Of a DNA stretch of 64,000 nt, positions 5,894 to 37,672 are shown one piece after another. The DNA is taken from NCBI GenBank assembly GCA_964655775.1, contig CAZZNQ010000004.1, forward strand, positions 7,822 through 71,821. Reading direction: 5' to 3'. Position numbers and translations under genes: made by a program. The stretch's first letter is position 1. Each line of letters opens with the position of its first letter. This stretch comes from an uncultured candidatus Brocadiaceae bacterium (lineage in GTDB: Bacteria; Planctomycetota; Brocadiia; SM23-32). The notes below the pieces were generated by a model. The model did no database searches. It was given only the letters and a program-made list of their open reading frames with translations, and was not told the origin of the DNA.

Positions 5894-7840
5894 CTACCAG
5901 TTGGGGATGTCCTCGGGGCTCGCATCCCATACGGCCGGGGACTTCACATGCCTCACCACGCCGGGGCTGCCCAGGTTGGCGTAGGTCCGCTCGGCAAGAC
6001 GATAGCTTCCGGGGCGATGGCCGACGAAGACCAGCTCGGTCGGCCAGAGCAGCCCCGCCACCTCGGGCAGGTCGGTGATGCGCAGGCAGGAAAGCATCTC
6101 GAGGGCCGGCCCGCGCCCGTCCGGCCGGGACACGGCATCCTGCGTTGCGGGCGGGTCCTGCAATACCACCGCCTGCAGGCCGCCGTCCAGAAGCGCCGCG
6201 TACAGGGCCACGGCCCCCATCTCGCCTCGTGCCGCGAGCACGACGCGGTCCGCGTCGACGCCCTCCAGTGCGCGCACCGCCTCAACGGCCCGCAGGGCGT
6301 CGTAGACTCGCATCGACGCGACCGTCCGGCCGAGTATGGCCGAAGCGCGTCGAACGTGCCAGGAGAGTTCCTCGCCCCACGACAGGTCGCCGACGCCGCG
6401 CAACTCCACGGTTGCGTTCGCCCAGTGCGACAGGCCCTCCACCGCGACGCATGCCTCGCCGCGCGGGCTCTTGAGGGACAGAATCACGCCCGATGGTGTC
6501 TCAAGGGCCGGGGGCCATTTGATCTGCCCGGGATGCCGCCAGCCGTCCTCGCTGGTGAAGCGGAACCTGGCGCCGCGTGTCTCTCCAGTCAGGAAGCGCT
6601 GGTTGACTTCGAGTTCGAGCGGAATGTTCCGTGGGAAGTGGTTGAAGGACAGCTCGCGCAGGCGGCCGATCACGTCCTCGCGGCGCTGCCGCAACTCGTC
6701 CTGATCCGTGCATGCTGCCGGCATCGCGAGCGGCACAAAGTCGTCTTCCACGGTCGTCGTTCGCTCGTCCGCCGGTATCTCACCGTTGGGAAAGACGCGC
6801 AGCACCTCGAAGTCCTCGTTCGCCTCGGGATCGTAGTCGCCGACTTCCTCCGGAGGCACGTCGCGGCCGGCAAGGTGCTTGAGGAACCAGGAGTATATGT
6901 GCGTGCGGGTTGTCTCGTGGTAGCCGTGGGGGCCCGGCGCCTCGACCATGTCCATCTTGTCCGCCGCCCCGACAATACCGTAGAGGCGCCGGAGCTTCTC
7001 CGCTGTCTCGCGGATCGACTCGATGCGGTACAGGTCGTCGCGATCGGTCGTGGCGATCAGCAGCGGCCGCGGTGCGATCAAGGCGCCCACGTCGGCCAGG
7101 TCCCATAGGTCCGTGTTGATGTGGTACATGCAGTCGCAGTGATGGTCCACCGTCTTCTCGGCCAGGTGGCTGCGCATGGTGCCGGTGCCGCAGCTTGGGG
7201 CCACGCACCGGGCACGCTCGTCCGCCGCGCCCAACCACCAGCTCACGGCGCCTCCGCCCGAGTTGCCGGTGACGCCCATCCGTTCGGCGTCCACCTCGGG
7301 CCTTTCCGCCAAAAGGTCCAGCGCGCGGATGCCGTTCCACGCTTCGACGCCGGCGGGCGTGAAGCCGCGGCTGTAGAGGTTGAACCGGCCTCCGTAGAAG
7401 ACGCCATGGTGGTCGCCGCGGATCTCGCCCAGTTCGATGGTCTCCACCACCAGCGCCACGAAACCGAGCTGCGCGAGTTTCCGGGCGTGGGGCTGGTAGT
7501 GGTGCTTCTGGACGGCGGCGTGCCCGCAAACCTGCACCACGGCGGGAGCCGGATCTTCCAGACCCTCCGGGACGTAAAGGTTGGCCGTCACGTAAAGTCG
7601 CGGCAGGCTCTCGAAGTAGAGCTTCTCAATGCGGTAGCCGTCGCGCTCCGCCACGCCCGTCACCTGCGTGTTCAGCGGTGTGCGGGGGGCGTTGAGATAC
7701 GGCGTCAGGCCCAGGCTATCGTGATATCTGGCCAGGCGCATCGGTCGCTCGCGGTGCCAGTCCTCGGCGGATTTGACCGAACTGAGCGACGCGTCGGTGA
7801 TGGCGGCGGCCTCGCGACACAGGTAGGTGCGGATGTCCAT
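5894..7840 (-). CDS. Two-module alpha/beta hydrolase (acetyl-xylan-esterase / dienelactone-hydrolase-like)
   Basis: Start at ATG 7840 (MDIRTYL) with GAGGAG 8 nt upstream. The first module has the nucleophile elbow GVTGNSGGG. The second module has the same fold signature but reads ARGEMGA at that position. Confidence 0.75.
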   Translation of the reverse strand: MDIRTYLCREAAAITDASLSSVKSAEDWHRERPMRLARYHDSLGLTPYLNAPRTPLNTQVTGVAERDGYRIEKLYFESLPRLYVTANLYVPEGLEDPAPAVVQVCGHAAVQKHHYQPHARKLAQLGFVALVVETIELGEIRGDHHGVFYGGRFNLYSRGFTPAGVEAWNGIRALDLLAERPEVDAERMGVTGNSGGGAVSWWLGAADERARCVAPSCGTGTMRSHLAEKTVDHHCDCMYHINTDLWDLADVGALIAPRPLLIATTDRDDLYRIESIRETAEKLRRLYGIVGAADKMDMVEAPGPHGYHETTRTHIYSWFLKHLAGRDVPPEEVGDYDPEANEDFEVLRVFPNGEIPADERTTTVEDDFVPLAMPAACTDQDELRQRREDVIGRLRELSFNHFPRNIPLELEVNQRFLTGETRGARFRFTSEDGWRHPGQIKWPPALETPSGVILSLKSPRGEACVAVEGLSHWANATVELRGVGDLSWGEELSWHVRRASAILGRTVASMRVYDALRAVEAVRALEGVDADRVVLAARGEMGAVALYAALLDGGLQAVVLQDPPATQDAVSRPDGRGPALEMLSCLRITDLPEVAGLLWPTELVFVGHRPGSYRLAERTYANLGSPGVVRHVKSPAVWDASPEDIPNW

Positions 7841-21790: not shown

Positions 21791-22243
21791 CTACTTGACC
21801 TCGATGCTCTTGGACTTCGCAGCCTCGATCTTGGGCATGCTCAGGTTCAGGACGCCGCCTTTGTACGACGCTTCGACCTGCTCGGTGTCCACGTAATCCG
21901 GCAGCCGGATCGAGCGCTCGAACCTGCCGTAGCGCCGTTCGACCCGGTGATAGTTCTCCTTCTCCGTGGCTTTCTCCTCTTTCTTCTCGCCACTGATCGT
22001 GAGAACCCGGTTCTCGACGGTGACGTCCAGATCGTCTTTCTCCATGCCCGGCACCTCGGCCGTGATCGTGACGGAGCTATCGTCCTCCTTCACGTCGATC
22101 GCCGGAGAGAAACGTCCTTCGTTCCACGGCTCGGGCAGCCCCACGTCTTCGAGCCCCTGCATAAGGTCCTCGAAAACGCGGCCGAATGGCCAGCCGTAAC
22201 GTCGTCCAACAGCGTTCGGTCTGCGTCTCATCAGGTCAGCCAT
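21791..22243 (-). CDS. Hsp20/alpha-crystallin family small heat-shock protein
   Basis: Alpha-crystallin domain (PAIDVKEDDSSVTITAEVPGMEKDDLDVTVENRVLTISGEK...GVLNLSMPK). AGGAGG RBS. Confidence 0.9.
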   Translation of the reverse strand: MADLMRRRPNAVGRRYGWPFGRVFEDLMQGLEDVGLPEPWNEGRFSPAIDVKEDDSSVTITAEVPGMEKDDLDVTVENRVLTISGEKKEEKATEKENYHRVERRYGRFERSIRLPDYVDTEQVEASYKGGVLNLSMPKIEAAKSKSIEVK

Positions 22244-22302: not shown

Positions 22303-22317
22303 GCAATGTGCGTGCCA
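22303..22317 (-). promoter_or_regulatory. Sigma-54 (-24/-12) promoter of hsp20
   Basis: The minus strand reads TGGCACGCACATTGC (exact TGGCAC-N5-TTGC) followed by TT, 60 nt upstream of ATG 22243. Confidence 0.75.
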
Positions 22318-29206: not shown

Positions 29207-29248
29207 ATCGCGCTTTCTTCGTGAACCAGAATCTCCTTTTCAAACGGA

Positions 29249-30481
29249 GTGCCCGTGTCGCACAAGAAGCCCATCGTCATGCTGAGCAGTTGGCCGCCAA
29301 GAAAGTGCGGGATCGGTACGTTCGCCGAGGAAGCCCTGGAGTTCATCCAGAAGCACGAGCCGGACCGCCCTTCCTACGTGATCTCGCACACCGACGGCAG
29401 CGGCGCCAACGTGTCTCCCCTGATTGATATGGCGAAGGGCGACTGGTACGTGTCGGTCGCCGAGAAGATCAGGGAGCTTGATCCCTATGCCGTCCACCTG
29501 GAGCACGAATACGGTTTGTATGACTACGTGGATGCGGAAGGAAGATCGGACCTGAATCGTGGCTTCCTGCAACTGCTCAGGGAGATCGAGGACTATCCCA
29601 CCGTGGTCGAGCCGCACACCGTGCACGGGCGCATGAAAGAGCACGAGGAGGAGTTCGTTCGCGAGCTGGCCGGCCTGTGCAACGTGTTGCTGTTCAAGTG
29701 CCATTACCAGAAGTGGCGGCTCGACTGGACGTTCTCCCGCAGGAACTGGCCGCGCCCGCGCAACATCATGATCGTGCCGCACGGGGCTCGCCCGGACCGG
29801 CGTTTCGCCATAGACCAGGTGGACGATCTCAAGGACGACCTCGGCATGGGCTTCCTGCGCGGCAAGCACGTGATCGGCCTGGTGGGCTGGATCCAGGCGA
29901 ACAAGCGCTGGGACATCATGACGAACATCTGGCCGGACGTCTACGAGGAGATCAGGCGCGAGACCGGCCAGGAATGGGTTCTGCTGGCGGCGGGCGACAT
30001 GCGCGACCCCAACGACACCGGCGATTTCCGGCGCTACGTCGACGGCTTGAAGCTGCTGGAAAACCAGGGCATCGGCCACTTCTACCGGTTCACGCCGCGC
30101 GGGGACGTCTACTACAAGGTCATGGGCGTCTGCGATTTCGTCGTCCTGCCCAGCATCGATGAGACGCAGTCCGGCACGCTGGCGCGCATCATCGCGCTGA
30201 ACAAGCCCTACGTGACCACCGCGCCGCTGGAGGGGCTTACGGCGCAGACGCTGGAGAGCGGGGGCGGGCTGCTCTTCACCAACAGGGACATGCTCCGGCG
30301 TCAGGTGGTGAGGCTGGCGACCGACGAGGGTCTGCGATGGAACCTCGGCCATCGGCTGTACCGCTACCTGATGGACGTCGTGAGCTGGGAGGTCATCGCC
30401 GGGCGGTACTACGAGGCATACCGTGCCGCCAACGCCGAAGTCCACGACGGCGTAAAGGTGGACATCCCCCCCGAGTTCTGA
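29249..30481 (+). CDS. GT4-like glycosyltransferase (second copy)
   Basis: N-terminus SSWPPRKCGIGTFAEE parallels ATYPPRQCGIATFTSD of the upstream gene. C-terminal VVLPSIDETQSGTLARIIALNKPYVTT is a GT1/GT4-type nucleotide-sugar motif. GTG start. Confidence 0.7.
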   Translation: MPVSHKKPIVMLSSWPPRKCGIGTFAEEALEFIQKHEPDRPSYVISHTDGSGANVSPLIDMAKGDWYVSVAEKIRELDPYAVHLEHEYGLYDYVDAEGRSDLNRGFLQLLREIEDYPTVVEPHTVHGRMKEHEEEFVRELAGLCNVLLFKCHYQKWRLDWTFSRRNWPRPRNIMIVPHGARPDRRFAIDQVDDLKDDLGMGFLRGKHVIGLVGWIQANKRWDIMTNIWPDVYEEIRRETGQEWVLLAAGDMRDPNDTGDFRRYVDGLKLLENQGIGHFYRFTPRGDVYYKVMGVCDFVVLPSIDETQSGTLARIIALNKPYVTTAPLEGLTAQTLESGGGLLFTNRDMLRRQVVRLATDEGLRWNLGHRLYRYLMDVVSWEVIAGRYYEAYRAANAEVHDGVKVDIPPEF

Positions 30482-30490
30482 GATAGCCCC

Positions 30491-31852
30491 GTGGCTGAAT
30501 CCGAGGGAAGCTTGATGGACATCCGCCACGTCGTCACCTGTTTCCTCCGCCATCCGGACGGGGACCGTGTGCTTCTCGGGCAGCGGAGCGATCGTGTCCG
30601 CACCTATCCGGGACGCTGGGCGGCCATAAGCGGATCGGTCGAGACAGTCGGCCCGATGCAGCAGGCGTTCCAGGAGATCGAGGAGGAGACCGGCCTGCTC
30701 TCGTTCCAGTACCGCGTGAGCCATGAGGGCCTTCCTGTGCGCTTCGCGGACTGGGATCTGAACACGCTCTGGGTGGTGCACCCTTTCCTCTTCGAATGCG
30801 AGGCTCCGGACGCCGTGTGCAGGGATTGGGAGCACGGCCGGTTCGAATGGGCCACTCCCGAGCAGATTGGCGGGCGTGAAACGGTGCCCAGGCTCCGCGA
30901 GGTTTTTGATGCCGCGTGTCGCGCGCCCGACATCGAGTCGTTCGAATGGATCTTCGCCGAAGTGGAGGAAGACCGCAGCCACGGAGCCGAGGAACTGGGC
31001 ATGTGGGTTCTGGAGGGTCTGAAACGCGCCGCCCGACGCGCCGCCGCGCGACAGAGCTCCCACCGGACGTTCACCGAGGAAGTCTGCAATGCCTGTCGCC
31101 GGGCGCTCTCGCTGCGTCCCAGCATGGCCGCCGTGCGCAGCGCCTCGCTTTCGGCCTACGGCCTCTGCAAGCAGCAGGCGGAGTCCCCCGAGCCGCAGGT
31201 GATGGTGCGGGGCCTGGACGCGCTGATATCCTCTCGGGAGACCGGCGTGGCGGAGGCCGGTGCGGCGGCGGGGAACCGAATTCCGGAGCGGGCGCGGGTA
31301 GTCACCATCAGCAAGAGCTTCACGGTGCTCTGCGCGCTGGCCCACGCGGCGGACCGCATCCAGCGGCTTGTTGTGGCGGAGTCGCGGCCGGCGTGCGAGG
31401 GCCGGGGCACGGCCGAGACGGCGGCTTCCTTCGGCATACCCACGGAGCTGGTCACCGACGCTGCCGCGATGCACGCAGCGGCCGACGCCGACGTTGTGCT
31501 GGTGGGGGCCGACTCGGTGCTCGCGGACGGCACTGTCGTCAACAAGACCGGTACGTTCGGGCTGTGCTCCGCCGCAGCCCGGGGCGGCGCGCGCGTGATC
31601 TGCGTTGCGACGGAAAGCAAGATCATGCCGGAGGGGGCGGACCCGCAGATGGAGGAGATGGATCCCGCCGAGCTCGGCGAGGCGCCCCCGTCGGTCGACG
31701 TGCGGAACGTCTACTTTGAGAGGGTGCCCGGCGAACTGATCGGGGAGTTGGTGGGGCCGAACGGACCGCTCACACCGGATCTCATCTCGTCGCGGGCCGA
31801 GCAACTCGCCGACTGGGAGCAGGAACTCTCCGGCGATTCCGATAGACCGTGA
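30491..31852 (+). CDS. NUDIX-like hydrolase fused to eIF-2B alpha/beta/delta-family (ribose-phosphate isomerase-like) domain
   Basis: The N-terminus has a degenerate Nudix box (GSVETVGPMQQAFQEIEEETGL). The C-terminus has VVAESRPACEGRGTA...VLVGADSVLADGTVVNKTGT, typical of the eIF-2B/MtnA/R15P-isomerase family. Start is GTG 30491 or ATG 30515. Confidence 0.7.
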   Translation: MAESEGSLMDIRHVVTCFLRHPDGDRVLLGQRSDRVRTYPGRWAAISGSVETVGPMQQAFQEIEEETGLLSFQYRVSHEGLPVRFADWDLNTLWVVHPFLFECEAPDAVCRDWEHGRFEWATPEQIGGRETVPRLREVFDAACRAPDIESFEWIFAEVEEDRSHGAEELGMWVLEGLKRAARRAAARQSSHRTFTEEVCNACRRALSLRPSMAAVRSASLSAYGLCKQQAESPEPQVMVRGLDALISSRETGVAEAGAAAGNRIPERARVVTISKSFTVLCALAHAADRIQRLVVAESRPACEGRGTAETAASFGIPTELVTDAAAMHAAADADVVLVGADSVLADGTVVNKTGTFGLCSAAARGGARVICVATESKIMPEGADPQMEEMDPAELGEAPPSVDVRNVYFERVPGELIGELVGPNGPLTPDLISSRAEQLADWEQELSGDSDRP

Positions 31853-31930
31853 TCCGTCGGATCGAGCGATTGCCTTCCCGCACGTCTTCCCAATCTTGTT
31901 GGTTGCCCGAGCTTCTCCGGCAGGGCGCAC

Positions 31931-32269
31931 TCAGTGGTCGCAGATGTTGTCGCCTGTCTCGAGTTCGCCCGCAGCAAACTGCTGCGCGACATCCTGGGGC
32001 GGCATGGTGGGGGCGCCGACGATGACGCGAATGCCGTCCTGCGCAAAGAGCTGCTGTGCTCGTCTGCCCATCCCGCCGGCGATGATGCATTCGGCGCCCT
32101 TCTCCCGCAGCCAGCGCGGCAGCAGCCCGGGCTGGTGCGGGGGCGCGCTGAGCGTGTCGATTTCCTCTACTGCACCCGTGTCGCAGTCCACTTCAAAGAG
32201 CGCGAACTGCTCACAATGGCCGAAGTGTGCGGCGAGCTGTCCCTGGTAGACGGGTATGGCTGCCTTCAT
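31931..32269 (-). CDS. NifX/NifB-C-terminal-like (dinitrogenase FeMo-cofactor biosynthesis domain) protein
   Basis: 112 aa. HFGHCEQFALFEV...IIAGGMGRRAQQLF pattern of the COG1433-type domain. Confidence 0.75.
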   Translation of the reverse strand: MKAAIPVYQGQLAAHFGHCEQFALFEVDCDTGAVEEIDTLSAPPHQPGLLPRWLREKGAECIIAGGMGRRAQQLFAQDGIRVIVGAPTMPPQDVAQQFAAGELETGDNICDH

Positions 32270-32271
32270 GT

Positions 32272-33126
32272 TTATTCGGTCTCCTCTTCCAGTTCGATAA
32301 TGGGCTGGATCGCCCGACTGAATGCCTCAGCGGCCGGGCTTTCCGTAAGTGCGAACGGCCGTCCGCCGTCCGATGTCCGGACGATTTCCGGATCGATCGG
32401 AATCCGGCCCAGGAACGGCACGTCCATTCGCTCGGCCATTATCTCTCCGCCTCCGGTTCCGAACAAGTCCGCCTGTTGCCCGCAGTGCGGGCAGACGAAG
32501 CCGCTCATGTTCTCGATCACTCCGAGCACCGGCAACTGCAGCCGCCGGCAGAACGTAATGCATTTGCGCACATCGGCCAGGGACAGTTCCTGCGGGGTGG
32601 TAACCACCACAGCCCCCGTGGCGTCCGGCAGGAGCTGGCATACCGAGAGGGCCTCGTCGCCCGTCCCGGGAGGCAGGTCCATTATCAGGTAATCCAGCTC
32701 GCCCCAGGCGACATCCGCGAGCAGTTGCCTCAGCACGTTCATCTTCATCGGTCCGCGCCATATGACGGCCTCGTCCGGCCCGCCGGTGAGGAACTGTATG
32801 GACATCACCCGCAGGCCCGGTCCACAGCGGACCGGCAGCAGGCTCTCGCCGTCCGACTGCACAGTTGCCGATTCCAATCCGAGCAGGCGCGGCACGCTGG
32901 GGCCGTGCATATCGACGTCCAGGAGGCCGACGCTCAGTCCCCGCTCCGCGAGGACGGCTGCCAGGTTGACGGCCACGGTGCTCTTGCCGACGCCGCCCTT
33001 TCCGGACAGGACCGCTACCTTGTGGCGCACCTGCGCCATGCGCTCCCCCAGGCGCTGCTGGCTGCGCTCTCGCTGCTCCCGGGCCTCCTGTTCGGCCGTC
33101 CGGGACGCGTCGTCAGTCTCGCTCAT
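32272..33126 (-). CDS. Mrp/NBP35 (ApbC-like) Fe-S cluster carrier ATPase
   Basis: Deviant Walker A VLSGKGGVGKSTVAVNLA plus the CPHCG cysteine pair. Start set at ATG 33126 (TAGGAG upstream). Confidence 0.85.
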   Translation of the reverse strand: MSETDDASRTAEQEAREQRERSQQRLGERMAQVRHKVAVLSGKGGVGKSTVAVNLAAVLAERGLSVGLLDVDMHGPSVPRLLGLESATVQSDGESLLPVRCGPGLRVMSIQFLTGGPDEAVIWRGPMKMNVLRQLLADVAWGELDYLIMDLPPGTGDEALSVCQLLPDATGAVVVTTPQELSLADVRKCITFCRRLQLPVLGVIENMSGFVCPHCGQQADLFGTGGGEIMAERMDVPFLGRIPIDPEIVRTSDGGRPFALTESPAAEAFSRAIQPIIELEEETE

Positions 33127-33167
33127 TCTCCGCAACTCCTATCGCCCGTCTCGTGGGTTGGGCACGT

Positions 33168-33527
33168 TTACCAGTGTGAGGCGACGTCCGCTCCGTCGGC
33201 CTTCTCCAGTTCGCCGCCCTTGAACGCGGCCACCGCGTCGGATACGGTTCCGCTCGCGCCGAGGGCCACCTTCACGCCCGCCGCCTGCAGGACGGACATC
33301 GCCTTGGGGCCGATGTGCCCGCTGACGACCCAATCCGCGCCCAGGTCCACCACATTCGTGGCCGACTGCACGCCTGCGCCACCGGCGGCGGTCATGTTCT
33401 GTGCGTTGTCGACGGCCTCGAACTCGCCGCTCTCGTCATCGTACATGATGAAAAACGCCGCCCGCCCGAAACGCTGGTCGACTTCCGAGGAGAGCTGCTG
33501 TCCACGGCTGGTCACACATATCTTCAT
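33168..33527 (-). CDS. NifX/NifB-C-terminal-like domain protein (second copy)
   Basis: 119 aa. VDQRFGRAAFFIMYD...VVSGHIGPKAMSVLQAAGV pattern of the same domain. Confidence 0.75.
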   Translation of the reverse strand: MKICVTSRGQQLSSEVDQRFGRAAFFIMYDDESGEFEAVDNAQNMTAAGGAGVQSATNVVDLGADWVVSGHIGPKAMSVLQAAGVKVALGASGTVSDAVAAFKGGELEKADGADVASHW

Positions 33528-33556
33528 CGCTGAGTCCTTTCCCGCAGACGGCCGAC

Positions 33557-33581
33557 GGGGCGAGGTCGTCGACCTCGCCCC
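33557..33581 (-). other. Intra-operon GC hairpin
   Basis: An 11-bp perfect stem GGGGCGAGGTC / GACCTCGCCCC with a 3-nt loop, between the DUF5320 and NifX-like genes. No U-tract follows. Confidence 0.5.
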
Positions 33582-33604
33582 GTGGCGGTCGGCATGCAGA
33601 TGGT

Positions 33605-33967
33605 TTAGTCCTGCTTTTCCAGTTCGTCTATGCGCTTCTTGACATCCTCGAGGGCGTCCTCAAGGTAGCCCGCCTCGCTCTTGAGCACGTCGAGCTGCTG
33701 CTCGGCCGTGGGAGCGTATGGCTGTGCATAGGCGGCGCCGGCGCCGAATGCGGGCATGCCGTAAGCCGCCCGCTGCCAGCCCGGCATTCCGGTCGCGCGG
33801 AACCAGTTGCGGCGGCCCCAGCCACCGCGTCCCATCCCGCGGCCCCAGAATCCTCGTCCGCCGGTCGGGTTCATGTAGCCCGGCCCGGCGTAACCGGCAC
33901 AGTATCCTGCAGCACGTCCCGTCATTGGGCCCATCCCCGCGGGTCCCGTTCCGTCTCCGCCTGGCAT
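33605..33967 (-). CDS. DUF5320 family protein
   Basis: MPGGDGTGPAGMGPMTGRAAGYCAGY N-terminus, a GRG repeat region and a C-terminal coiled coil. GAAGGAGG RBS before ATG 33967. Confidence 0.7.
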   Translation of the reverse strand: MPGGDGTGPAGMGPMTGRAAGYCAGYAGPGYMNPTGGRGFWGRGMGRGGWGRRNWFRATGMPGWQRAAYGMPAFGAGAAYAQPYAPTAEQQLDVLKSEAGYLEDALEDVKKRIDELEKQD

Positions 33968-34042
33968 GGTTATGCCTCCTTCTAAAAGTATATATGGGTT
34001 AGACACTCTTCTCCTGACCGCTGACCGGGCCACCGGCCGGCG

Positions 34043-34237
34043 TCAGGTCTGTGTTCCTTCTCGGATCAGGTTCGCCCCGCACTTGGGGCACTGCATCTTG
34101 AAACACGGCACGCCCCGCTGGTGGGGGACGCGTTCGCCGCAACTCGGGCAGACGCATGCTCCGCCCGGGCCCACGCCGAATCCGCCTCCGGCGCCGCGGC
34201 CACCTCGGCCTCCGGCGCCCCTTCCCTGGCCACGCAT
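34043..34237 (-). CDS. Small zinc-ribbon protein with Gly/Arg-rich N-terminus
   Basis: 64 aa. CPSCG...CPKCG ribbon. CAGGAGGA RBS. Confidence 0.6.
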   Translation of the reverse strand: MRGQGRGAGGRGGRGAGGGFGVGPGGACVCPSCGERVPHQRGVPCFKMQCPKCGANLIREGTQT

Positions 34238-34252
34238 CTCATCGTCCTCCTG

Positions 34253-34606
34253 TTAGCCTCTGCCTCTTCCGCCTCTCCAGCCGTGCCTGCCCCGTTGACG
34301 ACGCCCCGCTCCCGGGACGAACTGAACCGGTCCGCCCTCGATCGCGAGCGCACATCCCTGCACGAAGGCAGTGGCGATTTTGCGCCGCGCCTCGGCCAGA
34401 ATGCGGCTGACCGTCGGCCTGGAAACGCCCAGGCTCTCCGCCACCGCCGCCTGATCCATACCCAGGTGGTCGGCAAGTCGGACGGCCTCGTATTCGTCCA
34501 GAGCGAGCGTTATCCAGTCCAACTCGCGGGCCGGCACGCCGGCCGGCTTGAACACCGAGGCCGGCGGCCGGTGGCCCACAAAGCGTTGCTTCTTGTTACG
34601 GGGCAT
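34253..34606 (-). CDS. DUF134 (UPF0251) HTH DNA-binding protein
   Basis: MPRNKKQRFV...DEYEAVRLADHLGMDQAAVAESLGVSRPTVSRIL is the DUF134 sigma-70-region-4-like HTH. ATG 34606 with GGAG 7 nt upstream. Confidence 0.8.
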   Translation of the reverse strand: MPRNKKQRFVGHRPPASVFKPAGVPARELDWITLALDEYEAVRLADHLGMDQAAVAESLGVSRPTVSRILAEARRKIATAFVQGCALAIEGGPVQFVPGAGRRQRGRHGWRGGRGRG

Positions 34607-34621
34607 CAGCACTCCATTATG

Positions 34622-34631
34622 AACATATGTT
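34622..34631. promoter_or_regulatory. Perfect palindrome AACATATGTT (candidate operator) over the predicted +1
   Basis: It sits between the -10 element (34638-34633) and the RBS of the DUF134 operon. It extends imperfectly to ATGAAC-ATAT-GTTTAT. Confidence 0.5.
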
Positions 34632-34632
34632 T

Positions 34633-34661
34633 ATTATAGGCCGCCGACTGGGGCCTGTCAA
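34633..34661 (-). promoter_or_regulatory. Consensus sigma-70 promoter of the DUF134 operon
   Basis: The minus strand reads exactly TTGACA-N17-TATAAT. Confidence 0.7.
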
Positions 34662-34706
34662 GGCTTGTTTCCGAATTCTGTCGATGCTGGTCGGCGGTCG
34701 GCGCGA

Positions 34707-34735
34707 TTGCATCCGACGGGCCTTTCAGGTAGCAT
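34707..34735 (+). promoter_or_regulatory. Sigma-70-type promoter candidate for the ferritin-like gene
   Basis: TTGCAT-N17-TAGCAT. The leader carries the 10-mer GGCCGTTCCG twice (34736-34745 and 34785-34794). Confidence 0.45.
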
Positions 34736-34827
34736 GGCCGTTCCGGAGAGCAGCAGGGCCGCAAGGGGGACTCAGGTCCGCATCGGCCGTTCCGCACCGA
34801 AACAGCAAACCTGAAGGAGGAGGAAGG

Positions 34828-35313
34828 ATGCCGAACCTATTTTCCGTGCGCGAGCTTGTGGAAGTGGCCATCCAGGAGGAGCAGACGGGAGCGACCTTCT
34901 ACCGGGCTCTTGCGGAGAGCACGGACTCGGCGGAGCTGGAGGAGTTCGCCCTGGAGGTGGCCGAGATGGAGGACGAGCACGAGCAGAAGTTTAAGCAGAT
35001 GCTCGAGGGGTTGGGCGAGTACGAACCGACCGGCGAGTCGTACGCGGGCGAGTACGAATCCTACATGTCCTACCTTCTGGAAGGGCGCATATTCCCGGTG
35101 GGCGACGAGAGCCGCAAGATGGCGCAGCGCCAGATGTCCGACGAGGAGGCCGTCGAGACGGCGATGGGCCTGGAGCGCAACACGCTGTTGTTCTACCTGG
35201 AGATGCTGCGCTTCATCCCCGAACAGCACAGGTCTCTGCTGGACGACATCATCACCGAAGAGCGCCAGCACGTGCGTGACTTCGCGCAGTACAAGGCGGA
35301 CCACTTCGCTTAA
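34828..35313 (+). CDS. Ferritin-like / rubrerythrin-family diiron protein
   Basis: ATG 34828 after GAAGGAGGAGGAAGG. Paired ExxH-type helices (EMEDEHEQKF and ITEERQHVRDF). Confidence 0.7.
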   Translation: MPNLFSVRELVEVAIQEEQTGATFYRALAESTDSAELEEFALEVAEMEDEHEQKFKQMLEGLGEYEPTGESYAGEYESYMSYLLEGRIFPVGDESRKMAQRQMSDEEAVETAMGLERNTLLFYLEMLRFIPEQHRSLLDDIITEERQHVRDFAQYKADHFA

Positions 35314-35320
35314 GAAGCCG

Positions 35321-35344
35321 CGGGGCCTGTGACGGTCGGCCCCG
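35321..35344. terminator. Stem-loop between convergent genes
   Basis: CGGGGCC / GGCCCCG 7-bp stem with a 10-nt loop. No clear U-tract. Confidence 0.35.
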
Positions 35345-35351
35345 ACTAAAG

Positions 35352-35612
35352 TCACCGCGCATGTCCGGCAGGCGTCGGCTCGGCCCCCCGGGCCGGCGCC
35401 TGTTCTTTGCGCTCCTTCAACAGCTCCCGGATGTCCGCCAGCGTTTCGATTACCTCCGTGAGGAGCTCGGTCTCCTCCGAAGCGGTTTCGGTCACCTGGA
35501 CAAACTGTCTCTCCAGCACCGCCGTTTTGTAGCTGTTCCGCACGGCGAGGATGCAGGCGAACAGCGCCAGCGCCAGGCAAACAAACCAGGCGATCAGTTG
35601 AGACGGGTTCAT
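35352..35612 (-). CDS. Small membrane-anchored acidic helical protein, translationally coupled to the ABC gene
   Basis: ATG 35612 overlaps the ABC stop codon (ATGA). One TM helix, then an acidic helix. Confidence 0.55.
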   Translation of the reverse strand: MNPSQLIAWFVCLALALFACILAVRNSYKTAVLERQFVQVTETASEETELLTEVIETLADIRELLKERKEQAPARGAEPTPAGHAR

Positions 35613-37672
35613 TCGGCGTTCCCTCCTATTTGCGGCTGGTCTTGCTGGCCCATGAACTGCAGCTTGCACAGCCTCATGTACTCCCCGCCGAGCTCCAGCA
35701 GCTCGTCGTGGCTGCCCTGCTCTACTATGCGGCCGCCCCTGAGCACGATTATCTTGTCCGCGTGACGCACCGTGGAGAGCCGGTGTGCGATGACCAGGGT
35801 CGTGCGGCCCGCCATCAGGTTGTTCAGACCGCGCTGGACCAGCACCTCGGACTGGGCATCCAGGCTGGAGGTGGCCTCGTCGAGGATCAGAATCGGCGCG
35901 TTCTTGAGCAGGGCGCGGGCGATCGTCACGCACTGGCGCTGCCCCCCGGAGAGCCGCCCGCCCGACTCGCCCACCAGGGTATCGTAGCCGTCCGGCAGGC
36001 TGTCGATGAACTCATGGATGTTGGCGGCTCGGGCGGCCTCGATCACTTCCTCTTCGGTGGCGGCGGGGCGTCCGTAGCGTATGTTCTCGGAGATGGAGCG
36101 GTTGAACAGGAACGGATGCTGACCGACGATGCCGATCTGACCCATCAGGCTGTCGCGCGTGATGTTGCGTACGTCATGTCCGTCGATCTCGACAGAGCCG
36201 CGGTCGACGTCGTAGAACCGGGGGATCAGGTCCAGCAGCGTGCTCTTGCCGGCGCCGGTCTCGCCCACAATGGCGTACATGCTGCCGGCCTCCACGCAGA
36301 GGTCGATGTCCCTGAGCACGGGTTCGTCGTCGTAACCGAACCATACGTTGTTGTAGCGGATGCCCTCGCGCACGCCGTCGATCTCGACGGCATCGGGGCT
36401 GTCGACGATGTCCGCCGTCGTGTCAAGTAGTTCGAAGATGCGCACAACGCCCGGAGTGCTGGACTGCAGGTCGGCGTACGCCCGCACAGTTCTGCGCACC
36501 GAGCCCACCATGATACCCAGCGACAGCATGCAGGCGAGCATCTCGCCCACGGTGAGTTGCCCGGTGGAGATGAGCCGGTCGGCCAGAAGGACTATCAGCG
36601 ACACGGGGAGCAGATACAGGTACTCGGGCAGGTTCTGCGCCAGGGCACGGTTGCGCACCAGGCGGAAGGCCTGCCGGAGCTGGTCGCGGTTCCTCTCTCG
36701 GAAGGCCTGGCACTCCGCGTCCTCCATGTTGAACGCTTTTACGACGCGTATTCCGCTGAGCATCTGCGTGATGGAGTCGGTGATGTCCGCCAGGCGCTGC
36801 AGGTTGCGGTGCCCGTAGCGGCGGATGCGGGAGCCGTACCGGCCCATGACGAAGATCAGGGGCGGAAACGTAACGTGGGCGAGCAACGTCAGCTCCCAGC
36901 TCATGTAGATCGCGACGCCGAGCAGGATGAACAGCCGCATCGGCTCCAGCAGTATGGTGCCGAACAGAATCTTGACGGCAACCTGCGTGCTGTTCACGTC
37001 GTTGGTAAGCCGGCTGACGAGCTCGCCGCTGCGGTGGCGGGCGAAGAAGTTGAGCGACAGGCGCGAGATCTTCTCGAAGATGGCGACGCGGATGTCCGCC
37101 ATGATGCTCCAGACCACTCGCCGATGCGCGTACTCCTGCAGGAAGCCGGAGATGACCAGCAAAGGTCCTATCAGAAAGGCGATCAGGAGCGCGATCTTCT
37201 TGGGATCGCCCTCGGGCGACAGCAGGTCCATCGCGCCCCGGACCGGCGGCAGGGCCTTCAGCCAGCCCGTAATCCGCTTCTTGGTCGCCTCCAGGGGCTC
37301 GTCCGGCATCGCCTCTTCTTCGGTAGCGATGGTCTCTGCACCGCCCGCATCCGGCGGCTGCGCCGCGCCTGCATCGGCGTGTTGTTGCACGGCCGTGCCA
37401 GCCGCTGCGGGGTCATCCGGACTTCCACCCTCTGTCGAAGCGGCGGCCTCGGAGCCGTCCGCGTTCGGTGGCTGGTCCGCACTTGCCTCGGCGTGCTGCC
37501 GCGCGGCTATGGCATCGATCATGGGCTGGAACAGCAGCACCAGCGATCCGTTCACCAGATTGAACAACGTCATCGCCAGAAAGGCGGCGATGATCATGCG
37601 CCAGTGGCTGCCTGCGAAGGAGTAGAACCTAAGCAGCTTGCCGTATTCGGCCTGTTCCTCGCTTTTGGACAT
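35609..37672 (-). CDS. ABC exporter, fused permease/ATPase (MsbA-like) with ~100-aa first-loop insertion
   Basis: Walker A GETGAGKST, signature LSGGQRQ and Walker B ILILDEATS. Six-TM exporter domain. Confidence 0.9.
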   Translation of the reverse strand: MSKSEEQAEYGKLLRFYSFAGSHWRMIIAAFLAMTLFNLVNGSLVLLFQPMIDAIAARQHAEASADQPPNADGSEAAASTEGGSPDDPAAAGTAVQQHADAGAAQPPDAGGAETIATEEEAMPDEPLEATKKRITGWLKALPPVRGAMDLLSPEGDPKKIALLIAFLIGPLLVISGFLQEYAHRRVVWSIMADIRVAIFEKISRLSLNFFARHRSGELVSRLTNDVNSTQVAVKILFGTILLEPMRLFILLGVAIYMSWELTLLAHVTFPPLIFVMGRYGSRIRRYGHRNLQRLADITDSITQMLSGIRVVKAFNMEDAECQAFRERNRDQLRQAFRLVRNRALAQNLPEYLYLLPVSLIVLLADRLISTGQLTVGEMLACMLSLGIMVGSVRRTVRAYADLQSSTPGVVRIFELLDTTADIVDSPDAVEIDGVREGIRYNNVWFGYDDEPVLRDIDLCVEAGSMYAIVGETGAGKSTLLDLIPRFYDVDRGSVEIDGHDVRNITRDSLMGQIGIVGQHPFLFNRSISENIRYGRPAATEEEVIEAARAANIHEFIDSLPDGYDTLVGESGGRLSGGQRQCVTIARALLKNAPILILDEATSSLDAQSEVLVQRGLNNLMAGRTTLVIAHRLSTVRHADKIIVLRGGRIVEQGSHDELLELGGEYMRLCKLQFMGQQDQPQIGGNAE

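Follow-up and report, generated by a model that had tools for sequence, protein, structure and literature searches.

An operon of six genes lies on the minus strand of a 64,000-nucleotide stretch of DNA from an uncultured candidatus Brocadiaceae bacterium (GenBank assembly GCA_964655775.1, contig CAZZNQ010000004.1; the whole stretch is called the window below), and it raises the question of what a DUF134 protein, a small cysteine ribbon, a DUF5320 protein, two NifX-like proteins and an Mrp-type ATPase may do together. The answer proposed here is that the operon is probably an anaerobe-specific, autorepressed carrier or storage system for metal-sulfur clusters, of the kind known from the orange protein (ORP) complex and from IssA, in a minimal form with two gene fissions. 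The original prediction had suggested an autoregulated module for the handling or delivery of metalloclusters; this idea holds up, and we infer it now with much better support from gene linkage, an operator and a helix-turn-helix (HTH) fold.

The six open reading frames (ORFs), g1 to g6, are arranged head to tail and span 31931-34606, with intergenic gaps of 15, 75, 77, 32 and 2 nt from g1 to g6 and, as read by eye in the sequence, a Shine-Dalgarno-like GGAG or AGGAGG before each gene. The first, g1 (34253-34606), encodes a DUF134/UPF0251 HTH protein of 117 aa with an isoelectric point (pI) of 11.4, which scores 75.5 bits against Pfam PF02001, above the gathering cutoff of 27, matches several HTH families as well, and ends in the tail GAGRRQRGRHGWRGGRGRG. 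In g2 (34043-34237; 64 aa) a Gly/Arg tract is followed by a six-Cys ribbon, CVCPSCG-x11-C-x4-CPKCG, for which the Pfam scan gave zinc-ribbon matches below threshold only. The DUF5320 protein g3 (33605-33967; 120 aa) covers the whole PF17253 profile (positions 1-99) with 95.8 bits against a cutoff of 27, and its Gly/Arg/Trp tract, GGRGFWGRGMGRGGWGRRNWF, leads into a C-terminal helix. The remaining genes are g4 (33168-33527; 119 aa, pI 4.5), a stand-alone NifX-like (Nitro_FeMo-Co) protein of the orange-protein/MTH1175 type (PF02579, 76.9 bits), g5 (32272-33135, the true start likely being the ATG at 33126), a P-loop ATPase of the Mrp/NBP35 (NUBPL) type (PF10609, ParA/NUBPL, 330.8 bits), and g6 (31931-32269; 112 aa), a NifX-like Di-Nase domain that forms a gene of its own 2 nt after g5 (PF02579, 69.5 bits). 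The three Gly-Arg tracts, in the g1 tail, g2 and g3, have Gly plus Arg fractions of 0.79, 0.70 and 0.64 and a calculated pI of 12, and the products of g4, g5 and g6 are acidic (pI 4.5-4.9). The operon had earlier been described as six same-strand genes 2-77 nt apart, encoding DUF134, DUF5320, two NifX-like and Mrp-NBP35 products, with Gly-Arg tracts at the DUF134 C-terminus, at the ribbon N-terminus and in DUF5320; spacing and Pfam scores agree with this description, and the tracts all read exactly as it gave them.

The last three genes point to a known type of system. The NCBIfam model NF041136, named iron-sulfur cluster carrier protein MrpORP, has 365 positions and a curated cutoff of 450 bits; g5 matches its positions 1-254 with 377.8 bits and g6 its positions 265-364 with 120.1 bits, each staying below the cutoff, as two genes and not one polypeptide. 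Like MrpORP, g5 has the deviant Walker A motif GKGGVGKS (general form GKGGhGK[ST]) and a CXXC, here CPHC. The Di-Nase domain is defined by CXHFGHCE, TPPPHXPGXXP and a terminal CDH, which appear in g6 as AAHFGHCE, SAPPHQPGLLP and a CDH at the very end (...NICDH before the stop), the first Cys being changed to Ala. Because of this coverage of the model and these shared motifs, g5 and g6 are, as far as sequence can tell, a split MrpORP (Orp9), which differs from the known protein in consisting of two genes 2 nt apart, in lacking the N-terminal four-Cys motif and in the Ala just mentioned. Fusion and separation both occur among the related loci described below, 8 of which have the Mrp-NifXb pair as one gene and 5 as two. 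The closest solved structures to g4 are TM1290 (1rdu, 1.5e-19), Desulfovibrio gigas ORP (2wfb, 8.9e-19; 70.9 bits over residues 2-112) and MTH1175 (1eo1, 7.6e-15), and g6 matches TM1816 and PH0822. Since g5 and g6 make up a split MrpORP and g4 resembles the orange protein and MTH1175, the operon is, by its predicted products, an ORP/IssA-type cluster with two gene fissions.

The Pfam name Nitro_FeMo-Co and a weak match of g4 to the C-terminal part of NifB might instead suggest an accessory module for the maturation of FeMo-co for nitrogenase. Such a role is very improbable: the same cluster is found in many lineages without nif neighbours, the closest solved relatives (ORP, TM1290, MTH1175 and TM1816) are all non-nif proteins, and the likeness to NifX, NafY and the NifB C-terminal domain lies in the shared PF02579, while the window offers no nif context. 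Apart from the genes of the module, the 64 kb have no Mrp/MinD/NifH-like P-loop ORF and no NifX-like one, and a nitrogenase role was rejected on the lack of such ORFs together with the non-nif relatives. The earlier statement that the window has no nitrogenase genes therefore stands with respect to NifH-like P-loop and additional NifX-like ORFs, which makes the check a partial one.

The ORP system has been studied in the genus Desulfovibrio. The cluster of Desulfovibrio vulgaris Hildenborough consists of orp3-4-5 and orp7-8-9 in two divergent sigma-54 operons, with the regulator OrpR (PMC8359166; PMC6345978). The P-loop domain of MrpORP (DVU2109, Dde_3202) binds a [4Fe-4S] cluster on its CXXC and passes it on to Orp3/Orp4 as well as to aconitase, the Di-Nase (NifX-like) domain of the protein holds a [3Fe-4S] cluster, and D. 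gigas ORP carries a non-covalent [S2MoS2CuS2MoS2]3- cluster (PMC6345978). By analogy to the Desulfovibrio protein, g5 and g6 would carry a bridging [4Fe-4S] on the CXXC and pass it to partner proteins with the use of ATP. The operon of the window resembles the ORP cluster in that it pairs a single-domain ORP-type NifX-like protein (g4, in the role of Orp8) with MrpORP (g5 and g6) and in being anaerobe-specific; moreover, clusters with true ORP orthologues (loci L081 and L087, below) also carry DUF134, the operator, the ribbon, DUF5320 or other Gly/Arg-rich small genes. On the other hand, it lacks the Orp3/Orp4 MinD-ferredoxin ATPases, which 47 of 79 related loci and also locus L090 possess, and it is a single sigma-70 operon in which DUF134 takes the place of the enhancer-binding protein OrpR. 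A phmmer search with two MinD-ferredoxin queries of the Orp3/Orp4 type found only g5 in the 64-kb window, there is no TGGCAC-N5-TTGC-like sigma-54 site in 30672-35646, and no enhancer-binding protein gene stands beside the module. The combination of genes had been described as having no known function. This is not so for its core, which is the named and partly characterised ORP/MrpORP, and it remains so for the whole, as the function of the entire ORP complex is still called unclear (PMC8359166).

Whether the small proteins belong to such clusters was judged from gene neighbourhoods. A scan for DUF5320, with one genome per species, gave 80 loci (numbered with an L), 79 of them with a clear DUF5320 gene, from Planctomycetota, Thermodesulfobacteriota, Actinomycetota, Chloroflexota, Bacillota, Spirochaetota, Acidobacteriota, NC10, Lentisphaerota, Methanoperedens and others; with loci anchored on ORP and on DUF134 added, about 90 related loci were compared. 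Counting genes on the same strand within 5 kb of DUF5320, the neighbours are a g4-type NifX-like gene in 56 of the 79 loci, a MinD-like ATPase with two ferredoxin motifs (Orp3/Orp4 type) in 47, a g2-type ribbon in 38, a g6-type NifX-like gene in 30, a true Mrp in 29 and DUF134 in 11, and at least one ORP-type gene (NifX-like, Mrp or MinD-ferredoxin) is present in 67/79. Two loci were anchored on the ORP sequence of D. gigas. In L081 the order is operator, DUF134, a 112-aa (GQGR)n protein, ORP, two MinD-ferredoxins, NifX-like and ribbon; in L087 it is ribbon, DUF5320, ORP and two MinD-ferredoxins, with NifX-like and NifU_N after them. All three loci anchored on DUF134 (L088, L089 and L090) are ORP-type clusters, and L090 has exactly the order of the window (DUF134, ribbon, DUF5320, NifX, Mrp, NifX) with an additional fused double MinD-ferredoxin gene, and even shares with it a convergent NUDIX gene downstream. 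The gene-neighbourhood survey that the original prediction had named as a check thus finds the linkage kept in dozens of genomes, and these gene orders are evidence that the predicted DUF5320 and ribbon proteins are integral parts of ORP-type clusters.

The DUF5320 family itself has more than 6000 homologues, in which the N-terminal motif MPGGDGTGPxGMGPMTGRxxGYCxGY, with one invariant Cys, the Gly/Arg/Trp tract and the C-terminal helix are all conserved; the nearest named homologues of g3 come from Planctomycetota, in Brocadiia and Sedimentisphaerales. In the AlphaFold model of g3 the predicted local distance difference test (pLDDT) is below 50 at residues 1-83, which are thus predicted to be disordered despite their invariant positions, and a confident single helix spans 88-118. 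At many loci a g4-type NifX domain, a (GMGR)n tract and a DUF5320-type helix are found on one polypeptide, often together with 2x[4Fe-4S]. One example is a single ORF of L003 (7594-8469) that matches PF02579, PF17253 and Fer4, and other fusions join DUF134, ribbon and a NifX-like domain (L023, 5884-6729) or NifU_N and Mrp (L075, 7417-9477). Fusions of NifX-like with DUF5320-like and of DUF134 with ribbon sequences therefore indicate that these are working partners. A few further proteins of the related loci are of note in themselves. A cation-efflux (CDF) transporter is fused to a NifX-like domain in L087 (4021-5277). A third type of small protein has one or two MPxFDGTGP motifs and a (GRGR)n...W end, with neither helix nor ribbon (L003 5223-5708, L005 4379-4861, L035 5495-5962 and L049 5507-5923), and in a 290-aa ORF of L077 (4277-5149) a region near the N-terminus, with an MPRGDGTGP-type motif and a Gly/Arg tract, precedes a long C-terminal domain that is unrelated.

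The arrangement on one polypeptide recalls IssA of Pyrococcus furiosus, a protein of thioferrate storage whose unstructured cationic tail of Gly, Arg and aromatic residues or Trp has been proposed to wrap anionic thioferrate; MTH1175 (1eo1) has been called IssA-type and served as the modelling template for IssA (PMC5524996). With the published description of IssA, the cluster has in common the NifX-like IPR003731 domain and the cationic Gly/Arg/Trp tract. In the window, however, the tract is carried by other proteins than the NifX-like one (g3, g2 and the tail of g1), g4 is acidic and tail-less, and DUF5320 has two additional features of which the description of IssA makes no mention, a conserved N-terminal motif and a coiled-coil-like helix. 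DUF5320 would then act as a detached cationic tail for the acidic NifX-like carrier g4 and, as proposed for IssA, may hold anionic inorganic Fe-S species, or possibly Mo/Cu-S. A more far-reaching version, which we regard as tentative, is that DUF5320, the six-Cys ribbon protein and the DUF134 tail are all detached equivalents of the thioferrate-binding tail of IssA, that the resulting store is loaded or unloaded by the Mrp ATPase, and that it is sensed by DUF134 and the ribbon at the operator.

Two other readings of the same proteins are to be weighed here. The first is that they handle molybdenum- or tungsten-sulfur species, such as thiomolybdate or the Mo-Cu-S cluster of ORP, and store or detoxify thiometallates in sulfidic habitats. 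The similarity of g4 to D. gigas ORP (8.9e-19) is as close as that to any solved NifX-like protein, the Mo-Cu-S cluster of ORP is anionic and would fit cationic Gly/Arg tracts, and the L088 cluster includes a gene with an FmdE domain (6781-7326, where FmdE is joined to zf-dskA_traR). Nevertheless, no molybdate or tungstate transport gene and no molybdopterin gene adjoins the module in the window, and the fusions and neighbours elsewhere (NifU_N, a 2x[4Fe-4S] ferredoxin, Mrp) point to Fe-S, so that this reading is an unlikely one. The second holds that the small Gly-Arg proteins bind DNA, RNA or G-quadruplexes and that the module serves cell division or helps to position the contents of the cell, the Mrp/MinD-type ATPase being its positioning motor and the cluster a structural element only. 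The ORP complex has indeed been linked to morphology and division, and MrpORP is polar (PMC6345978, PMC8359166); DUF134 and DUF5320 proteins of Methanosarcina mazei are among the top matches for an RG-rich quadruplex-binding motif (PMC7565180), and the basic tail of the DUF134 HTH might do no more than increase its affinity for DNA. Yet the Gly/Arg tracts are fused to NifX-like and ferredoxin domains, not to nucleic-acid-binding ones, and the neighbours are NifU_N, Mrp and ferredoxin-ATPases, with neither ParB nor FtsZ beside the module in the stretches checked; a part in division or nucleic-acid binding is about as improbable as the thiometallate reading. The preferred assignment remains that to an Fe-S carrier or storage system of the ORP/IssA kind.

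How such a system would be regulated is suggested by the first two genes. The core of g1 is modelled by AlphaFold with a pLDDT of 90-97 as a three-helix HTH, and Foldseek places it with sigma-70 region 4 and with the operator-bound DNA-binding domain of Bacillus subtilis DeoR (7bhy; 45% identity over 40 residues, rmsd, i.e. root-mean-square deviation, 0.5 A). The superpositions deviate by 0.5-0.8 A over 40-50 residues with E-values of 0.01-0.05, modest values because the DUF134 domain is short. While the three-helix HTH is shared with sigma-70 region 4 and the N-terminal domain of DeoR/SorC proteins, DUF134 is set apart by flanking beta strands and by a basic tail or Cys ribbon, and it has no sugar-phosphate-binding domain and no sigma regions 2-3. 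Basic R/G/H/W tails are kept in DUF134 homologues, and other DUF134 proteins end in CxxC...CxxC ribbons.

The two genes g1 and g2 share a reading frame and are separated by one TAA only. The stop of g1 (34255-34253, minus strand) is followed by a 15-nt in-frame linker, CAGGAGGACGATGAG (34252-34238), which contains the AGGAGG of g2. In close relatives of g1 (about 60-70% identity), a single protein of 173-197 aa joins DUF134 to a six-Cys ribbon through a Gly/Arg linker, and the junction of the window (RGGRGRG, stop, QEDDEMRGQGRG) aligns with ...GRHGRGWNSTEDGEMRAGPGAGG of the fused relatives P0272, P0279, P0289, P0293, P0327 and P0340; in the alignment to fused relatives it is also written RGGRGRG, stop, QEDDEMRGQGRGAGG. 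By this comparison, 34238-34255 is the fission point of a DUF134-ribbon fusion. Given the fused relatives and the shared frame, the ribbon is therefore read as a detached domain of the regulator, and it would constitute its metal- or Fe-S-sensing part, acting in trans. The ribbon family has more than 45 members with a common Cys pattern in the related loci, and the stand-alone ribbon proteins mostly begin with MPRGDGTGP, as DUF5320 does. The TAA between g1 and g2 may reflect a recent fission or an error of sequencing, or it may be a site of read-through.

The DNA ahead of g1 is organised in a way that suits such a regulator. A sigma-70-type promoter, TTGACA-N17-TATAAT, is located at 34661..34633 on the minus strand, with the -35 box at 34661-34656 and the -10 box at 34638-34633. 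It agrees with the consensus at 12 of 12 positions and is the sole promoter-like site in 31500-35400, compared with 0.4 in shuffled sequence. The perfect palindrome AACATATGTT at 34622-34631 is the core of an imperfect palindrome at 34616-34637. The candidate operator is the 16-bp inverted repeat ATAAACATATGTTCAT at 34619..34634, which has one mismatch to ATGAAC-N4-GTTCAT and overlaps the end of the -10 box as well as the predicted start site. The promoter falls in a 60-nt bin with a GC content of 0.517, the joint lowest within 31-36 kb. An exact promoter of this form and a perfect palindrome over the predicted transcription start had been reported before, and both are confirmed; the remark that the palindrome lies in a very AT-rich spot is valid within 31-36 kb. 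A palindrome over the -10 box and start site of a strong promoter is the classical layout of repressor control.

The site is conserved beyond the window, where it is the only good site of its type in 64 kb. Upstream of DUF134 in L002, another Brocadiaceae locus, TTGACA-17-TATAATGAACATATGTTCATAATGGAGG is nearly identical to the sequence of the window. Exact TGAAC-N4-GTTCA has 10 occurrences in 788 kb of the 80 loci plus 20 kb of the window, where Markov resampling predicts 0.8, and all 10 sites lie upstream of DUF134, ribbon or DUF5320 ORFs against an expectation of 0.1, upstream being taken as from 180 nt ahead to just inside the ORF start, as starts are possibly over-extended. The exact sites belong to loci of Brocadiaceae, Planctomycetales and Lentisphaera and to four loci of Actinomycetota, and repeats of the operator type recur altogether at 11 other loci from several phyla ahead of DUF134, ribbon or DUF5320 genes. 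The half-site pattern gave this clear signal, while the 8-mer ACATATGT by itself is only about 1.9-fold enriched across the loci. In the independently fetched L081, L088, L089 and L090, the site abuts a TTGACA/TTGACG-17-TATAAT/TATATT/TATTGT promoter before DUF134. Operator and DUF134 also tend to occur together, the operator being present in 5 of 13 loci with DUF134 and in 2 of 67 without it (odds ratio 20, p = 0.0009), and DUF134-bearing loci that lack the exact site carry related CATATG-centred palindromes. In most of the Actinomycetota loci that have the site it is present in two copies, and pairs 26-27 bp apart were noted upstream of DUF5320 in L022 (5914/5940), L023 (2331/2357), L030 (2451/2478) and L032 (6822/6848). 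The two copies suggest cooperative binding by two dimers.

The role of the palindrome as a conserved operator tied to DUF134, as read from these patterns, is now much better supported than it was. DUF134 is presumed to be the repressor at this palindrome because of its co-occurrence with the site, the position of the site and the modelled HTH fold, and the earlier idea of the DUF134 HTH as a repressor gains from both the conserved palindrome and the likeness of the modelled core to sigma-70 region 4 and DeoR. Transcription would thus start from the consensus sigma-70 promoter, and DUF134 would bind the inverted repeat and repress its own operon. The Gram-positive LexA box is CGAAC-N4-GTTCG. 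It has the core GAAC-N4-GTTC in common with the operator, and L008 and L032 bear the operator with no DUF134 in the stretch examined, so that another regulator, for example of the LexA type, might bind the repeat; the operon would then belong to a different regulon and DUF134 would do something else. This is quite unlikely, since 10/11 module-linked sites have T/A flanks, in the form (A/T/G)TGAAC...GTTCAT, and none has the full CGAAC...GTTCG, none of the remaining GAAC-N4-GTTC sites of the loci stands ahead of a module gene, the site tends to occur together with DUF134 and directly precedes it in the window, L002, L081, L088, L089 and L090, and the window has no second site. Repression by DUF134 is thus kept as the preferred explanation.

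A further element lies within the operon. Between g3 and g4, a stem-loop on the minus strand has arms at 33555-33568 and 33570-33583, 14 nt each and 100% complementary, with a minimum free energy of -45.6 kcal/mol (z = -3.8) and no T-run after it. A GC hairpin of 11 bp dividing the first three genes from the last three had been noted earlier; it is real in position, with arms of 14 nt. Across 79 loci, the 80 nt past the DUF5320 stop have a mean z of -2.79 relative to shuffles, with 59% below -2 and 44% below -3 and stems of 12-22 bp. The controls, in comparison, have means of -0.38 (80 nt past NifX-like genes, 3% below -3), -0.46 (80 nt past P-loop genes, 1%) and -0.25 (random windows, 1%). 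As predicted by folding, the stem-loop after DUF5320 is conserved across phyla. Rfam has no known RNA family in 31500-35500, and the hairpin is not a repeated element within the window. A T-run follows 4/46 of the hairpins, and a same-strand module gene lies within 400 nt for 22/46. The stem-loop may be a leaky terminator or a stabiliser of the 3' end, and we infer that it yields more message for DUF134, ribbon and DUF5320 than for NifX and Mrp, that is, it would raise the upstream message relative to the downstream genes. Such an unequal message would suit a protein that is needed in excess, for example a matrix or tail.

Several points weigh against an autorepressed carrier or storage operon as the explanation. 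In its core, GAAC-N4-GTTC, the operator is similar to the LexA box of Gram-positive bacteria, DUF134 is present in just 11-13 of the 80 DUF5320-anchored loci, and the operator-bearing L008 and L032 show no DUF134 within the stretch examined. Since most hairpins after DUF5320 are without a T-run, their effect on transcript levels is a presumed one. Binding of metal species by the proteins of the module is likewise deduced from sequence, and Orp3/Orp4, the only demonstrated clients of MrpORP, have no homologue in the 64-kb window. Gly-Arg tracts are also typical of nucleic-acid binders (PMC7565180). Finally, the IssA clade is delimited by a pI of at least 9, a Cys count below 5 and a stretch of 40 residues at the C-terminal end of which 20% or more are Gly (Vaccaro 2017 supplement), and g4, with its pI of 4.5 and no tail, falls outside it, though it has the IPR003731/NifX-like domain.

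Around the module, the window encodes an ABC exporter, glycosyltransferases and a NUDIX-IF-2B fusion. The last of these (30491-31852, plus strand) joins a NUDIX hydrolase to an IF-2B/ribose-1,5-bisphosphate-isomerase-like domain and is convergent with g6; a NUDIX gene is likewise placed in L090. A rubrerythrin/ferritin-like gene (34828-35313, plus strand) is divergent from the promoter of the module; it was considered as a member and dropped, as the pairing is not conserved in the 80 loci. A perfect sigma-54-type -24/-12 element, TGGCACGCACATTGC, at 22303-22317 on the minus strand, about 60 nt upstream of the ORF 21791-22243 of the same strand, has no relation to the module. Plus-strand genes supported by Pfam are overlapped by long antisense or shadow ORFs, such as 29240-31930 on the minus strand, and one of these ORFs has 896 aa; most likely they are spurious and due to the high G+C content (about 0.65-0.7).

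In the searchable literature, DUF134, UPF0251 and DUF5320 occur as names only, with nothing functional attached, and the operator, the hairpin after DUF5320 and the membership of the Gly/Arg proteins in ORP clusters are not described there; part of the gene neighbourhood may be contained in Fievet 2011, reportedly the founding ORP paper, which lies outside that search. As a kind, ORP, MrpORP and IssA are known; new in the operon described here, as far as its predicted genes and sites show, are the absence of Orp3/Orp4, control by sigma-70 and DUF134 as against sigma-54 and OrpR, and the two gene fissions.

The ORP system is widespread in anaerobes and its role is unclear, and the trafficking and storage of Fe-S in these organisms are poorly known. 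The module offers several handles on them, namely a candidate regulator with a 16-bp operator on a consensus promoter, informative fusions and a stem-loop that hints at unequal expression. In addition, three families of unknown function acquire testable hypotheses, and ORP/MrpORP and IssA, which have been studied separately, become linked. If the more tentative proposal of detached IssA-type tails is true, anaerobes of many phyla would possess a regulated store in which an anionic metal-sulfide polymer, a 'mineral' of Fe-S or Mo/Cu-S, is kept on NifX-like proteins.

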